Shown: positions 4,095-64,000, counted from the stretch's first letter. The stretch is 64,000 nt of DNA from Escherichia coli (GCF_003334255.1 NZ_QOWU01000022.1); one strand, 5' to 3'. Translations and numbers: made by a program. Notes: generated by a model from the letters alone, not told the origin.

Positions 4095-4328
4095 TCAGAG
4101 GATGGTGCCGCCTTTGGTTAACTGTTCGTGGCGCGCTTCCATATCTTCTTTATGCTTGCGACCGTGATGGGCAATAGCGGTGCGCAAGCGCTGCTGCTGG
4201 GTGTAGCGATCTTCCCGACTTAACTCCGCGTCATCGCTCAGGGCGATTAATAATTCGTTCATATGGGCAATGACGCTCTCTTCAATCGCGGCATCCACGC
4301 GCGCGATGACTTCATCCAGATGCGACAT
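4095..4328 (-). CDS. ydcY: Small uncharacterized protein YdcY
   Basis: 77-aa ORF MSHLDEVIARVDAAIEES... Confidence 0.75.
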   Translation of the reverse strand: MSHLDEVIARVDAAIEESVIAHMNELLIALSDDAELSREDRYTQQQRLRTAIAHHGRKHKEDMEARHEQLTKGGTIL

Positions 4329-4413
4329 ACTTTCTCCTTAGCCACTTGTGAAATTTATCGATTCATCCAAATGATATAAGTCTGTGTGGTGCCGTCAAGC
4401 CAGTGAGTAAGAT

Positions 4414-4587
4414 TTAAAACAGTGAAAACAACAGCGCCACCGGGAAACTCATCGGCCATGTTGCCCCCACCAGAAAGGCGCTTAAGAAACGGATGCGTTT
4501 CTTATCGTGAGAAAGAAACCAGGTGATAAGAAATGCGATTGCTGCCATAACCGCATAAAAAACAAGCATGTGTTGATAGAGAGACAT
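4414..4587 (-). CDS. ortT: Small membrane toxin OrtT (YdcX)
   Basis: ORF 4414..4662; start trimmed to MSLYQHMLVFYAVMAAIAFLITWFL to give the recalled 57 aa. Confidence 0.75.
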   Translation of the reverse strand: MSLYQHMLVFYAVMAAIAFLITWFLSHDKKRIRFLSAFLVGATWPMSFPVALLFSLF

Positions 4588-4781
4588 GTACGGGCGTCCA
4601 GCCAGATGAATAAAACGCGCGCAAATATGCGTCATTTTTTGACGTGCATCAAGTTTTTTCACCGGTTTGAGAAAAAAACATCAAACAGCAACTTGCCCTT
4701 ATCCATCTTCAGAATGAGTATGATTGCGGATTTTCTTAACCCGTACTATACACATAGGGGCAATGATAAAAGGTGACAAAA

Positions 4782-4877
4782 ATGAATGTTTCCAGTAGAA
4801 CTGTAGTACTGATAAATGTCTTTGCTGCTGTTGGTTTGTTTACTCTTATCTCTATGAGATTTGGCTGGTTTATTTGA
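4782..4877 (+). CDS. yncL: Small membrane protein YncL (31 aa)
   Basis: Own translation: MNVSSRTVVLINVFAAVGLFTLISMRFGWFI, stop TGA at 4875-4877; below the ORF-track size cutoff. Confidence 0.7.
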   Translation: MNVSSRTVVLINVFAAVGLFTLISMRFGWFI

Positions 4878-4973
4878 TGTAGTGATTTTGCACGCAGCAC
4901 GTACTGTCAGAGAAATCAACTCTCTGACAGTACGCAAGATCATCTCATACTCTTACGATCTGCAATATTATCC

Positions 4974-6398
4974 TTAATGTTTAACCATGACGTGGCGGAC
5001 GACGGTGTAATCCTCCAGCCCATAAAGTGACATATCCTTGCCGTAACCAGAAAGTTTCTGCCCACCGTGCGGCATTTCACTTACCAGCATGAAATGGGTA
5101 TTGACCCAGGTACAACCATATTGCAGCCGTGCGCTGACGCGATGCGCCCTGCCCACATCTTTAGTCCATACCGAAGATGCAAGTCCGTACTGGCTGTCAT
5201 TCGCCCAGTTCACCACCTGTTCTTCGTTGTCGAAGAGCGTAACACTCACTACTGGACCAAATACCTCTTTTTGCACGATGGCATCGTCCTGTAATGCGCC
5301 AGCCAGCAGCGTCGGCGCATAGTAATAGCCATTACCCTTGCGCTTTTCACCGCCGGTGATCACTTTGATATGCCCTGTCGCTTTCGCCTCTTCTACCGCC
5401 TTGCTGACGCGTTCGAGATGCGCCAGCGAGCTTAAAGGTCCAAGCTCCGTAGACTCGTCATCCGGCGCACCCGATTTTAACGTTGCCACCACAGCACCGA
5501 GTTTTTCCACCAGCGTATCGTAAATGCCTTTTTGCGCGTAGATCCGACAAGCCGCAGTACAATCCTGTCCGGCATTGTAATAGCCAAATGTACGTACACC
5601 TTCGACCACTGCTTCAATATCCGCATCATCAAAAACAATCACTGGCGCTTTGCCACCAAGTTCCATATGAGTACGCTTAATGGAGGGCGCGGTATGGCTG
5701 ATGATGTGCTCGCCGGTGGCGATAGAGCCCGTCAGCGACACCATCCGCACTTTGGGATGACCGGTCAGCGGATCCCCCACCGTTTTGCCTCTGCCAAACA
5801 GTACGTTAATCACGCCTGCCGGGAAGATATCTTTCGCCAGCTCTGCCAACTTCAACGCGGTCAGCGGGGTAATTTCTGATGGTTTAAGCACTACGCAGTT
5901 CCCTGCCGCCAGCGCCGGAGCAAGTTTCCACGCGGCCATCATCAGCGGATAATTCCACGGTGCGATAGAAGCCACGACCCCCAACGGATCGCGACGGATC
6001 ATCGAAGTATGACCTTCAAGATATTCACCTGCCGCCAGACCATTCAGACAGCGCGCCGCACCCGCGAAAAAGCGAAAAACATCGACAATCGCCGGGATTT
6101 CATCATTGAACGCACTATGCAGCGGTTTGCCACAATTACGGGACTCCAGTTCGGCAAAAACCTGACCATTTTCTTCGATAACATCAGCCAGTTTCAGCAG
6201 ACATTCCGCACGCACTTTCGGCGTGGTTTGCCCCCATTCGGCAAATGCTGCATCTGCCGCGCGCACAGCAGCATCGACCTGCTCTGCGGATGCCTCGGCA
6301 ATTTCCAGTAAAACGTCCCCCGTTGCCGGATTATAGACAGGCTGTTTTTCCCCTTCGCCGCTAACCAGTTCTCCGTTAATCAGTAACTTATGTTGCAT
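4974..6398 (-). CDS. patD: Gamma-aminobutyraldehyde dehydrogenase
   Basis: 474-aa aldehyde dehydrogenase ORF; follows the ydcSTUV transporter genes on the same strand. Confidence 0.9.
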
Positions 6399-59645: not shown

Positions 59646-59672
59646 ATGCTCTGGATAAGGATTATCCAATTC

Positions 59673-59784
59673 TAAAAAAAAAGCCCGGACGACTGTTCGG
59701 GCTTGTCTTTTTATATGTTGGAAAATCAGTGGCAATGCAATGGCCCAACAGAAAATAAAATCTGTGACAATAAAGGCATATAAC
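59673..59784 (-). ncRNA. micC: MicC small regulatory RNA
   Basis: Reverse complement of 59761-59784 is GTTATATGCCTTTATTGTCACAGA; ends in hairpin gcccgaacagtcgtccgggc plus U-run; sits between ydbK and ompN. Confidence 0.85.
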
Positions 59785-60011
59785 CCGCGCAGAATAACGT
59801 ATAGAAAATTAAAAGTATAATTTTTATTTTGTATGTATTATCTTCGATACATTCACCAGACTTATTATCATTTCAGAAGAATTATTTGATTAAGGTTTTA
59901 CTTAAGGCGTAACAAATGATATTTATCGGCTAACTGAACTTCTCCTTTAGGATGTTTTCACTCCCCGAAATGGGGATAAAAGGCAAATAAAATAACTAAA
60001 GGATTTATTCA

Positions 60012-61204: not shown

Positions 61205-61720
<516 letters not shown>

Positions 61721-61726
61721 CACTAA

Positions 61727-61753
61727 CGCCCGCACATTGCTGCGGGCTTTTTG
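61727..61753 (+). terminator. Rho-independent terminator of uspF
   Basis: gcccgca-cattgc-tgcgggc followed by ttttt. Confidence 0.75.
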
Positions 61754-61895
61754 ATTCATTTCGCAAATGTGCTGACATTTTCCCCTCTAATCCGTACCAT
61801 ACACACCACTGTTTTTATTTCAGATTTCTTATGCTGGGCATTCCGGCATGACGCATACTCTTCTGATGCCATATAACGAATTGAGTCGCTTTTAA

Positions 61896-61949
61896 ATGTC
61901 GCAAAATCAAGAAATTAGTAAGAAAGAACAATACAACCTGAACAAGTAA
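61896..61949 (+). pseudogene. ttcC: 17-codon 5' fragment of ttcA (ttcC-like integration-site remnant)
   Basis: Own translation: MSQNQEISKKEQYNLNK then stop; resembles the recalled TtcA N-terminus MQENQQITKKEQYNLNK. Confidence 0.6.
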
Positions 61950-62399
61950 GGGCAAAGATCATAATCATCTGGCGTATAATTATTTTATTTAGTTTTAATA
62001 AATTAAGGCACGTCAGCAGCTACGATGAGCAATAATAACCCACTTTCTTTTTGTCCCATTTTTGCCACAATCAAATAGCCTGAAACCTAGGATAACCGCC
62101 ATTAAACAATAACTAGACCAGCAGACATGCCACTACCGGCACCGTAAAATCCATCAGGCTTGCCACATCCCACGCATGTGGTTCAAAACCGCCTCACCAC
62201 GGCATATTCATACGCTTGCTTGATATGTTCGGTTCCCCAAAAATAAATGGTAACACTACTACAGACTGCTCTTGAAGCACTGAAAGAGCAATACAAACTG
62301 ATTGGACATCATCGCAAAAGCGAAATCACCTTTTATCATCGGGAGGACGGCAGAACCGAAAAGCAAAAACTGCATTTTTCTTGCCCAAGATGTGTAACG

Positions 62400-62666
62400 G
62401 AAAACAGAAACCTTTATTAGTCGGTAAGCAGTTTGGGTGCGAGATGGAATGCAACAGTAATACGTGCTGGTATTCGCCGCCGTAATCCGTACCATACGCA
62501 ACATACTTTTGCCTGCTTACTGTTGACGATTTGAGCGAACCCGGCATTTATATTCAGCCAGACGGGGGATGAAACTGCGCAGATGGTGTATGAAGTGTAT
62601 GCTAATTGGATAGAAAACATGAACAATGAACAAATAGATTTTTTGAACAGAAAGCTATCATCGTGA
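62400..62666 (+). pseudogene. Decayed 3' end of a tyrosine recombinase (integrase) gene
   Basis: Own translation: ...IRAGIRRRNPYHTQHTFACLLLTI*, then in another frame ANPAFIFSQTGDETAQMVYEVYANWIENMNNEQ; no intact N-terminal region. Confidence 0.5.
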
Positions 62667-62751
62667 TGGCTCCTTAAAAAAGACTAAAAAACACCACGAA
62701 TATAGCGCATTACATATTAATGCAGGTGACGTAATGCCACCTACAATGATC

Positions 62752-64000
62752 TTAAGCATCACTCTTGTCTCGAGGTTCCTTTAGATTCAGAACTCGGATC
62801 AATCCATCATGTATTTTATATTCATCAGAATCAATAAACCCTTGTGAAGGGTAAAAACATTTATAACGCCAAATTGTAGACTGACCAACTTTAAACCCAA
62901 TCAATGATATATCGAACATAAAACGTATCTGTTCATTGATCAATTCAGTATTATAATTAGCATCTATTTTTTGCAATTCAGTAACCAGTTCATTCTTAGT
63001 AAAAATTGTAGATGAATGATTCTGTATAGCAGAAAGAAGTATTTTTATTTCAGGGCGCTGAACCGCCCATTCATCATTGATTTCCTGTTTTAACCACTCT
63101 GAGTAACTTGGCTCAGCCTGGTAAATATATTCAACCTCCAACTTATCACCAACAAAATCATTATCTGAGAACGGATCGTTTTTATCATCGCGCATGGAAC
63201 TAATTGTTTTAGTTAATAAACATATCATATCGCGAGGACGCATCATCGAGCGCTTCATCAGATAATTAAAAGGTTTTGCACGCTGCCGCATCTCATGACG
63301 GTCAAAAAGTTCATCAACATCATGAACTAGATCTTTATTTACATTGGCGGCATAATAATTTATTCTTTGGAGAAGCATCTTCATTAAAGTTTCTCTACTC
63401 CAATGAAGAAGAGCCCCGCAATCCTCTCGAAGTTTATTAGAGTCATTCAAGCTCAATACTTCGAATATATCTTCTCGCAGAAAAATCAAAGGTCTAATGT
63501 TACCATTATATTTTGGGGTTATGGCATCAGCAGCGGTGACTAACCCTGCTATAACCCTTCTCGATACATCGACTGAAATTTCATCCCATGCTTCGTCTAT
63601 ACGATCAAAACAAACAAAAACTTTTGCATGCATTGGTTGGCTACTTCGGAGACAATTTTCAAAGTAATCAATTAAATGATCAATATTATTACATAACTTA
63701 TCACGTAAGTCGGGATCATTCGAAGCGGATTCGAAATTTACTTCGCCTCCATCTAACTCAAGGGAATTCAAGTCACCGTCAGATAAATCCAAACCAGCTT
63801 TTGGCAAAGAAATTTTTCCTAAACCCAGTAACTTCCTCCCCACTAATACAGAAATAGAAGGGAATGGTGTATCAAAAATTTTCTCCAGTGCAACTTTAGC
63901 ATTTTTTAATGGTTTAGGTATTGGGTGATGCTGCCAACTTACTGATTTAGTGTATGATGGTGTTTTTGAGGTGCTCCAGTGGCTTCTGTTTCTATCAGCT
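62752..64000 (-). CDS. Uncharacterized protein, 5'-truncated by the window edge, in AT-rich accessory DNA
   Basis: ORF 62752..63843 stays open in frame to base 64000 (own translation of the upstream 157 nt); stop TAA at 62752-62754; AT-rich composition unlike flanking core genes; no confident family assignment. Confidence 0.6.
   Translation of the reverse strand, partial: ADRNRSHWSTSKTPSYTKSVSWQHHPIPKPLKNAKVALEKIFDTPFPSISVLVGRKLLGLGKISLPKAGLDLSDGDLNSLELDGGEVNFESASNDPDLRDKLCNNIDHLIDYFENCLRSSQPMHAKVFVCFDRIDEAWDEISVDVSRRVIAGLVTAADAITPKYNGNIRPLIFLREDIFEVLSLNDSNKLREDCGALLHWSRETLMKMLLQRINYYAANVNKDLVHDVDELFDRHEMRQRAKPFNYLMKRSMMRPRDMICLLTKTISSMRDDKNDPFSDNDFVGDKLEVEYIYQAEPSYSEWLKQEINDEWAVQRPEIKILLSAIQNHSSTIFTKNELVTELQKIDANYNTELINEQIRFMFDISLIGFKVGQSTIWRYKCFYPSQGFIDSDEYKIHDGLIRVLNLKEPRDKSDA

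Follow-up and report, generated by a model that had tools for sequence, protein, structure and literature searches.

The window analysed here, i.e. the whole stretch of 64,000 nucleotides of Escherichia coli DNA, ends in a long minus-strand open reading frame, which a sequence-only reading had left without a family and had regarded as a possible phage-defence gene. The locus raises the question of what this frame encodes, how it came to lie beside a fragment of ttcA and whether a role in defence is a reasonable expectation. As to the first point, the gene is known already, being annotated in RefSeq, covered by a curated family and accompanied by a validated distant relative (DS-41). The remaining interest concerns its clade, which is effector-less, very conserved and found in prophages between the attachment site and int. 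As to the last point, a defence role of the intact gene product is plausible.

The open reading frame and the IS1 insertion

The minus-strand frame is open for 415 codons, from the TAA at 62752–62754 up to the window edge (translation of 62752–63999). The earlier description of an ORF of at least 415 codons running to the edge thus holds for the open frame, but not for the gene, which ends at 63923; the last 77 nt of the window (63924..64000, plus strand) are not part of it and represent the left end of a 768-bp IS1A, starting with the left inverted repeat GGTGATGCTGCCAACTTACTGAT. The initial 25–26 codons of the 415-codon ORF (ADRNRSHWSTSKTPSYTKSVSWQHHP) are therefore a read-through into IS1. 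The genuine segment in the window occupies 62752..63923 on the minus strand and covers residues 126–514, plus the stop, of a 514-aa protein, to the intact allele of which RefSeq gives the name P-loop ATPase, Sll1717 family (hereafter the ATPase). Since the frame remains open over 1.17 kb in DNA of 35% GC and hundreds of full-length homologues exist, the gene is far beyond what could be ascribed to chance. It should be pointed out that the interruption by IS1 had been missed in the sequence-only reading.

The boundaries of the insertion were defined by comparing the interrupted allele with the uninterrupted one (locus L002 being the reference), a 9-bp target-site duplication, TAGGTATTG, flanking IS1 on both sides, with one copy at 63915..63923 and the second beyond the window. 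The IS1 of locus L001 (14225–14992, 768 bp) is identical to the 77-nt IS1 start in the window. The element splits the ATPase gene at codon 125/126, codons 1–125 being located on its far side, outside the window (L001 14988–15374), together with the Walker A motif (GRKGAGKT, residues 45–52). This agrees with the earlier remarks that the visible part contains no Walker A and that the N-terminus has to be sought outside the window, residues 1–125 lying past the 768-bp IS1.

Concerning other strains, a megablast search of 5,426 complete E. coli genomes revealed a 100% match to 61700–64000 of the window in strains G1/2, G6/7 and G8, the order given by RefSeq in G1/2 being P-loop ATPase, Sll1717 family, then IS1A transposase, then again P-loop ATPase, Sll1717 family. 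Strains WP7-S17-ESBL-04 and MB06232 match the window only to 63923 and carry the uninterrupted gene of 514 codons, the product in the former strain having the accession WP_197971544.1. A different IS1 variant (94.9% identical) has entered the gene of PEC408 independently, at about residue 271, and an IS1-broken copy is thus present in 2 of the 4 independent E. coli lineages. The two independent insertions could mean that the gene is dispensable or costly, but they could also simply reflect the target choice of the element. IS1 prefers AT-rich DNA.

The Walker A and Walker B motifs are found in one polypeptide in the intact allele, but not in the window's strain, where IS1 lies between them; the window copy, moreover, has a conserved residue replaced relative to the intact allele (G397S). 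It is a pseudogene, and the system in the window's strain should be non-functional, because IS1 parts the Walker A half from the half bearing Walker B, the lid and the winged helix. For this particular genome, the gene, annotated, rare and IS1-broken, is best designated a pseudogene and not an active system.

The prophage scar at ttcA and the spread of the gene

The AT-rich composition, noted from the sequence alone as unlike that of the neighbouring core genes, is borne out by a GC content of 0.34–0.38 over 62500–64000 vs 0.51–0.58 in nifJ/ydbK. Upstream of the ATPase ORF, there are ompN, uspF, a short 5' fragment of ttcA (61895–61945) and an integrase pseudogene (62210–62666), the last two having been recognized in the sequence-only reading as well. 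The ttcA fragment is the displaced original 5' end of that gene and forms the left attachment-site repeat (61895..61945, plus strand), a 51-nt direct repeat in which the ATG at 61896 opens the displaced start, MSQNQEISKKEQYNLNK, followed by a stop, and which includes a 26-nt identical core, AAGAAAGAACAATACAACCTGAACAA, at 61920–61945. In the uninterrupted locus, the two imperfect 51-nt repeats of the ttcA 5' end, 86% identical to each other, bound an island of 2,683 bp, the right copy being the start of the intact ttcA and the left copy its displaced predecessor.

The island contains, first, a fragment of 119 nt (62101..62219, minus strand) of a small late-end lambdoid prophage gene, resembling, at 87–88% identity, a hypothetical gene that adjoins tail-fibre genes, e.g. 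in strain Nissle. The match ends at ~62219, at which position the intR-like sequence begins. The latter is a 3' remnant of an IntR-like tyrosine integrase (62210..62666, plus strand; a RefSeq pseudogene, 82.5% identical to intR), frameshifted, with an internal stop and without the N-terminus, that corresponds to the 3' third of the gene and can be aligned with the final ~110 codons of the complete int genes of loci L022 and L018. Both marks of a Rac-like element at ttcA, i.e. the duplicated ttcA 5' end and the remnant of an IntR-type integrase, are present. The ATPase gene is oriented convergently with int and divergently from ttcA.

The same arrangement is seen in larger elements. Locus L022, which is an intact Rac-like prophage, reads ttcA, ATPase, int, xis, DUF4060, a gene of the dATP/dGTP pyrophosphohydrolase family (PF04447), RecT and RecE, with YdaS, YdaT and a DnaT-like gene further on, whereas locus L018 reads ttcA, ATPase, int and holins, up to a tail fibre; the ATPase homologues occupying this slot in the two intact elements exhibit 85–86% amino-acid identity. 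The ATPase gene thus sits between int and the attachment site, and the window contains a Rac-like lambdoid prophage of which the two ends and a single cargo gene are left. An internal deletion has fused its late end with the middle part of int, leaving the 3' end of int and the ATPase as survivors. The proposal that the frame is cargo of an element inserted at ttcA is in this way supported both by the repeats around the island and by the occupation of the same slot in Rac-like prophages. On the other hand, no partner genes lie outside the window, where the sequence-only reading had placed any that might exist, only IS1 and the gene's own first 125 codons intervening before ttcA in this strain. 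The idea of several genes acting together, with further members past the window edge, was rejected, as the gene following the ATPase in the uninterrupted allele is ttcA itself. Scans for promoters and terminators yielded no more signals than in shuffled sequences.

As to distribution, 6 of the 5,426 complete E. coli genomes carry the gene, in every case at the ttcA locus and with at least 99.9% identity; a check of the uspF/ttcA locus thus confirmed it as rare and non-core, and on the same count the possibility of a core-genome gene was rejected. The cluster at 90% identity consists mainly of Salmonella enterica (serovars Wien, Livingstone and Wichita, and subsp. salamae), the ATPase adjoining ttcA in all three Salmonella loci inspected. 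Between E. coli and Salmonella, the ATPase shows 92.7% identity at the DNA level and 96.5% at the amino-acid level, and its identity at third codon positions reaches 0.82 vs 0.48–0.53 for ttcA, dbpA, uspF and nifJ. Since the third-position identity exceeds that of the flanking core genes, lateral transfer of the ATPase is indicated, the common ancestor of the two copies being far more recent than the divergence of the species. The ATPase is likewise under very strong purifying selection, as 96.5% amino-acid identity is maintained against 82% at third positions and the mean column identity across phyla is 64% (alignment of 42 sequences).

The same data bear on the possibility that the gene has no host-level function, being a selfish or mildly toxic, possibly addiction-like passenger, or decaying prophage junk, the retention of which is accidental. 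Such an explanation would suit the IS1-broken state of half of the independent E. coli lineages, as a loss in progress, as well as the conserved-site replacement in the window copy and the extreme rarity in E. coli, but it has to contend with an ORF that stays intact amid a decayed prophage in two E. coli lineages and several Salmonella serovars, with the purifying selection just mentioned and with the lack of any antitoxin-like partner; it is considered unlikely. The anti-phage function, which is the reading preferred here, is further illuminated by the spread of the family beyond the enterobacteria.

Full-length proteins of ~511 aa, 55–60% identical, occur in Planctomycetes, Bacteroidetes, Verrucomicrobia, Chlorobi and many Proteobacteria. 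A profile search of 1.84 billion cluster representatives retrieved 140 of them at E < 1e-30, 1,385 at E < 1e-10 and 3,171 at E < 1e-3, mostly of 470–520 aa. By tblastn, the ATPase had no counterpart in 50,697 sequenced phage genomes, and IMG/VR contained it in only 7 contigs, for which the neighbours were uninformative by integrase tblastn and PHROGs. Plasmids contain a single close copy (K. variicola, 82%), along with many paralogues at 22–26%.

The genomic contexts of the relatives are diverse. The gene lies next to xis/int in lambdoid prophages at sbcB (L020) and, in Erwinia, at rseC (L010); in V. cholerae (L006–L008) it is found beside a filamentous prophage (Rep_trans to Zot) near rtxA; in Ketobacter (L014) it belongs to an island with Cas1, Macro, HEPN_AbiU2 and BrnT/CopG, which is a defence island; and in Flavobacterium (L012) it forms a lone insert between a pyrB-like gene and an ABC-F gene. 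No neighbour gene is conserved across the contexts inspected, i.e. the prophages, Ketobacter, V. cholerae, Flavobacterium and Salmonella. Elsewhere in the family, fusions to GT4-conflict glycosyltransferase, EAD7 and cold-shock domains are seen in a few proteins; going by their Pfam names, GT4-conflict and EAD7 are connected with 'conflict system' and 'effector-associated' families.

Family, fold and candidate function

The intact allele can be assigned to the P-loop ATPase, Sll1717 family, represented in NCBIfam by the model NF047389 (ATPase_Sll1717), which it matches with 263.6 bits (E 3.9e-78, cutoff 75) over residues 11–503, aligned to profile positions 2–454 of 454. The inability of the sequence-only reading to place the protein in a family is thus superseded by both RefSeq and NCBIfam. 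Pfam gave only weak P-loop matches for the full protein, to ORC-CDC6-like PF24389 within residues 17–78 (E 1.7e-4) and to AAA_16 (E 3.9e-3), whereas PHROG 13260, a group without function annotation, was matched with E 9e-40. A comparison with defence-detection tools, as advised earlier, succeeded in part, PADLOC reporting only a partial match to the candidate PDC-M28C and no Avs. Literature searches returned no paper on PDC-M28C, none under the name Sll1717 and nothing specific on ttcA/prophage/defence or effector-less STAND proteins; the supplements of DefensePredictor include neither the ATPase protein nor 'Sll1717', and searches of the PDB by sequence (single sequence and profile) yielded nothing meaningful.

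The structure was modelled by AlphaFold2 from the 42-sequence alignment (pLDDT 84.7, pTM 0.82). In the model, a strand (residues 42–45) precedes the P-loop (residues 45–52) and is followed by strand 2 (residues 70–76) and a helical insertion (residues 83–222) with a low-confidence acidic loop at 162–187. Then come the Walker B strand (VFVCFDRIDEAW) at residues 225–231, the strand ended by FLRED (residues 267–274), the invariant segment NKLREDC (residues 287–293), a helical lid (residues 301–372) with MRPRD at 352–356 and, finally, a winged helix (residues 416–495). In the window, the Walker B region corresponds to 63583–63618, the end of the FLRED strand to 63469–63483, NKLREDC to 63418–63438, the RPRD lid motif to 63223–63243 and the winged helix to 62812–63051. 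The Walker B of the intact allele is FDRIDE at residues 230–235. Both motifs quoted in the sequence-only reading as weakly recalling Walker B and lid regions are present in the translation of the ORF and occupy the anticipated places, KVFVCFDRIDEAWDE being the Walker B strand, with D231, D234 and E235 invariant, and MRPRDMICLL belonging to the lid, with R353-P354-R355-D356 invariant. The invariant residues also include K51, T52, R274, R290 and H496.

The closest folds of the model include Cdc6/Orc1, TnsC, MuB and BrxC, the matches to ORC/Cdc6-type and archaeal AAA+ proteins scoring above those to STAND. When the last 137 residues were modelled separately (pLDDT 74.9), the result matched the winged helices of Sso1545, ORC1, Cdc6, PAB2304 and the NB-ARC of NRC1, and also the DNA-binding proteins Fur, MarR and TubR. 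No nuclease, protease, TIR, SIR2, transmembrane, repeat or other effector domain was detected by Pfam, by PADLOC or in the model. On these grounds, the ATPase may be described as an AAA+ 'NOD-only' protein on the borderline between ORC/Cdc6 and STAND, its insertion being unusually large and located where initiators would have their specific insert.

As far as the function is concerned, the intact ATPase probably acts, although this is said with some reserve, as a stand-alone anti-phage or superinfection-exclusion factor, i.e. a prophage moron, because it is distantly related to DS-41 within one family, is mobile and occurs in prophage and defence-island contexts, the defence-island association of the clade concerning a handful of loci. 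The protein would bind ATP and oligomerise on DNA via its winged helix and the strand-2 insertion, like ORC/Cdc6, TnsC, MuB and BrxC; a phage-specific cue would release it from an inactive state; and the assembly itself, with no enzymatic domain involved, would block the replication or packaging of phage DNA, or arrest the cell. Assembly is proposed as the output because the protein lacks an effector domain and because its nearest structural neighbours work through ATP-dependent assembly on DNA. This mechanism is the weakest step of the account, the assembly on DNA being inferred by analogy of fold only. Winged helices of STAND proteins often do not bind DNA.

Several details, which we take to be STAND/NLR-like, i.e. 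the Walker B of the form DxhDE, the invariant R274 ending strand 4, the proline of the lid and, presumably, the V/I-H-D motif after the last strand of the winged helix, suggest that the resting state may be locked by ADP and released by the phage cue. A STAND-type sensor/switch or adaptor that employs an effector in trans (from the host, a phage protein or its own copy) and forms no assembly on DNA is conceivable. This is unlikely, given that no neighbour is conserved in any context, no repeat sensor domains exist, the DS-41 clade does not conserve the histidine of the HD motif and STAND structures are outscored by the ORC/Cdc6-type and archaeal AAA+ matches. Prophage housekeeping, with the ATPase as an ORC/Cdc6- or TnsC/MuB-like DNA-bound enzyme for replication initiation, target selection or the control of integration/excision, accords with Cdc6/Orc1, TnsC and MuB among the closest folds, with a winged helix of the ORC/Cdc6 type and with the adjacency to int/xis in four prophages, but is unlikely, since the gene lies outside the replication module (O/P, DnaB and DnaT-like genes being elsewhere), is lacking in K-12-type Rac and in the 50,697 phage records, is absent from all but 6 of the 5,426 complete E. 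coli genomes, including matched genomes with an intR-type integrase, has a 55–60% identical counterpart without phage or transposon genes in Flavobacterium and one in the defence island of Ketobacter, and has no conserved transposase partner.

Within the anti-phage reading, a more specific version would regard the whole clade (~511 aa, with 55–60% identity all the way from Planctomycetes to Enterobacteria) as an immune ATPase of a separate kind, lacking an effector, the output of which is an ORC/TnsC-like oligomer on phage DNA; this version is tentative and, as it stands, rather doubtful. If true, it would represent a new defence mechanism and not another Avs-like fusion of a sensor with an effector, carried by a clade that lambdoid prophages would disseminate as cargo placed between their attachment site and int. 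An effector-less ATPase with such a strong conservation across phyla would also offer a tractable model for a minimal ORC/STAND-like phage arrest.

Comparison with known systems

In comparison with Avs and other bacterial STAND NTPases, the ATPase has neither an N-terminal effector nor C-terminal TPR or other sensor repeats. Membership in Avs was rejected for the absence of effector and sensor domains, the tripartite STAND layout being reduced to a NOD-like module. The archaeal AAA+ proteins Sso1545 (2fna) and PAB2304 (2qen) are shorter, ~350 aa, without the insertion of ~140 residues, and share 12% identity with the ATPase, the match of which to their Pfam family, ATPase_2 (PF01637), is not significant (E 0.25); we know of no function for either of them. 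The ORC/Cdc6 clade, including BrxC/BrxD of BREX, has the AAA+ core, the lid and the winged helix in common with the ATPase; judged by the hallmarks of that clade (PMC12839542), the insert after strand 2, between the strand at residues 70–76 and the Walker B strand, would take the initiator-specific or HEH position, being far larger in the ATPase, and candidate counterparts of the conserved arginines are R290, near the base of strand 5, and R353 or R355 in the lid. Unlike ORC/Cdc6 and BREX, however, the ATPase has no replication or BREX gene context.

The most informative comparison is that with DS-41 (AAA2, WP_033812887.1), a single gene of 502 aa described in the DefensePredictor study (Science 2026; PMC13092281). 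Expressed from its native promoter in MG1655, it lowers the plating of Bas63, Bas19 and Bas25 by ~3.6, 2.3 and 1.4 log10, respectively, and was classed by the authors as a remote Avs1B homologue, with homologues as far as Halobacteria (PMC13092281). The earlier characterization of the function as undescribed was therefore half true, the anti-phage activity of a distant family member being on record since 2026; of the two proteins, the activity has been shown for DS-41 alone.

Both proteins are single-gene products of ~500 aa with a patchy spread across phyla, and both pass the Sll1717 model, the ATPase being nearer to its core than DS-41 (263.6 vs 97.6 bits); many relatives of DS-41 are indeed named by NCBI as P-loop ATPase, Sll1717 family. 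They share, in the same order, an N-terminal AE..[DE] motif, the Walker A G[RQ][KR]GAGK[TS], a long helical insertion, the Walker B D[RK][ILV]DE, the lid PR[DE]hI and a C-terminal winged-helix region. The pairwise similarity is marginal, BLAST aligning only the Walker A and lid regions, and the C-terminal motif is VADPRV in DS-41 vs YRVHDGL in the ATPase. Alignment of the two clades by hhalign gave E 5e-5 and a probability of 66% over 189 columns covering Walker B, the lid and the C-terminus. Against NF053860 ('DS41_1_antiphage'), the ATPase scored 58.6 bits (E 5.4e-16), its residues 13–466 being collinear with profile positions 10–426 of 448, while DS-41 itself scores 414 bits and its genuine relatives 371–414 bits; an equivalog of DS-41 was rejected, the cutoff being 370. 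Judged by these profiles, the ATPase and DS-41 represent two distant clades of one family. Should the intact allele indeed defend its host, the Rac-like slot between the attachment site and int would be a position for defence cargo able to outlive the prophage, and a second, very widespread clade would be added to a family in which DS-41 is the one validated member.

Repeated damage to the ATPase gene in E. coli

The gene encoding the Sll1717-family P-loop ATPase, split by IS1 in the window strain, carries a second IS1 in E. coli PEC408 (L016, positions 4288-5055), inserted at about residue 271. This insertion is independent of the one in the window strain. The PEC408 element represents another IS1 variant, with 94.9% identity, and shows a 9-bp overlap at positions 13779-13787 of L002, the locus with the uninterrupted E. 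coli allele. With this second insertion, a broken ATPase copy is found in two of the four independent E. coli lineages. When the window copy is compared with the intact allele over residues 126-514, the sole amino-acid change concerns residue 397 (window ~63109-63111), occupied by serine in the former and by glycine in both the latter and the family consensus AEPGYSEW; this substitution may reflect relaxed constraint following the IS1 hit.

Internal structure of the prophage scar and its surroundings

The remnant of the Rac-like prophage at ttcA contains a 119-nt fragment (window 62101-62219) exhibiting 87-88% identity to a small hypothetical gene from the tail-fibre end of lambdoid prophages, a gene of which many E. 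coli genomes carry 2-3 copies. Sequence resembling intR, the Rac-type integrase gene, adjoins this fragment at ~62219, and the junction between them marks the internal deletion joint of the scar. A 47-nt imperfect direct repeat (window 61769-61815 and 62464-62510; 74% identity), with a 15-nt exact core TAATCCGTACCATAC, has one copy upstream of the displaced ttcA start and the other within the int remnant. By a rough estimate, its length exceeds that expected by chance for 3 kb, and it may represent an older int 3' scar from an earlier integration at ttcA. At the far end of the intact prophage with the order ttcA, ATPase and int (L018), an int fragment likewise adjoins a ttcA 5' fragment. Elsewhere in the window, the MicC sRNA, an already-known feature, is located upstream of ompN (59667-59787, minus strand), matching Rfam RF00121 with 125 bits (gathering score 90).

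Other hosts and the wider family

In the Salmonella enterica island at ttcA (L003-L005, positions 12268-15690), the ATPase gene is followed by a gene encoding a DUF4765 protein of 1,140 aa, then by a small EamA/Multi_Drug_Res gene and finally by uspF; this extra cargo is absent from E. coli. The 55%-identical homologue of Vibrio cholerae (L006-L008), once more a single gene, immediately follows a filamentous prophage with Rep_trans, DUF1293 and Zot beside rtxA, which is another phage-integration hot spot. The plasmid collection search revealed paralogues of ~26% identity, the match being confined to residues 215-507, that are common on plasmids of Klebsiella, Enterobacter, Citrobacter and E. 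coli (e.g. NZ_CP084778.1, 4310-5221; also ~50-kb Enterobacteriaceae plasmids) and annotated as hypothetical. Several kinds of domain are fused to long, distant members of the family, P0296 and P0389 among them: GT4-conflict glycosyltransferase, matched at E 1e-127, EAD7, matched at E 9e-19, and cold-shock. These fusions are possible clues to effector coupling across the wider family.
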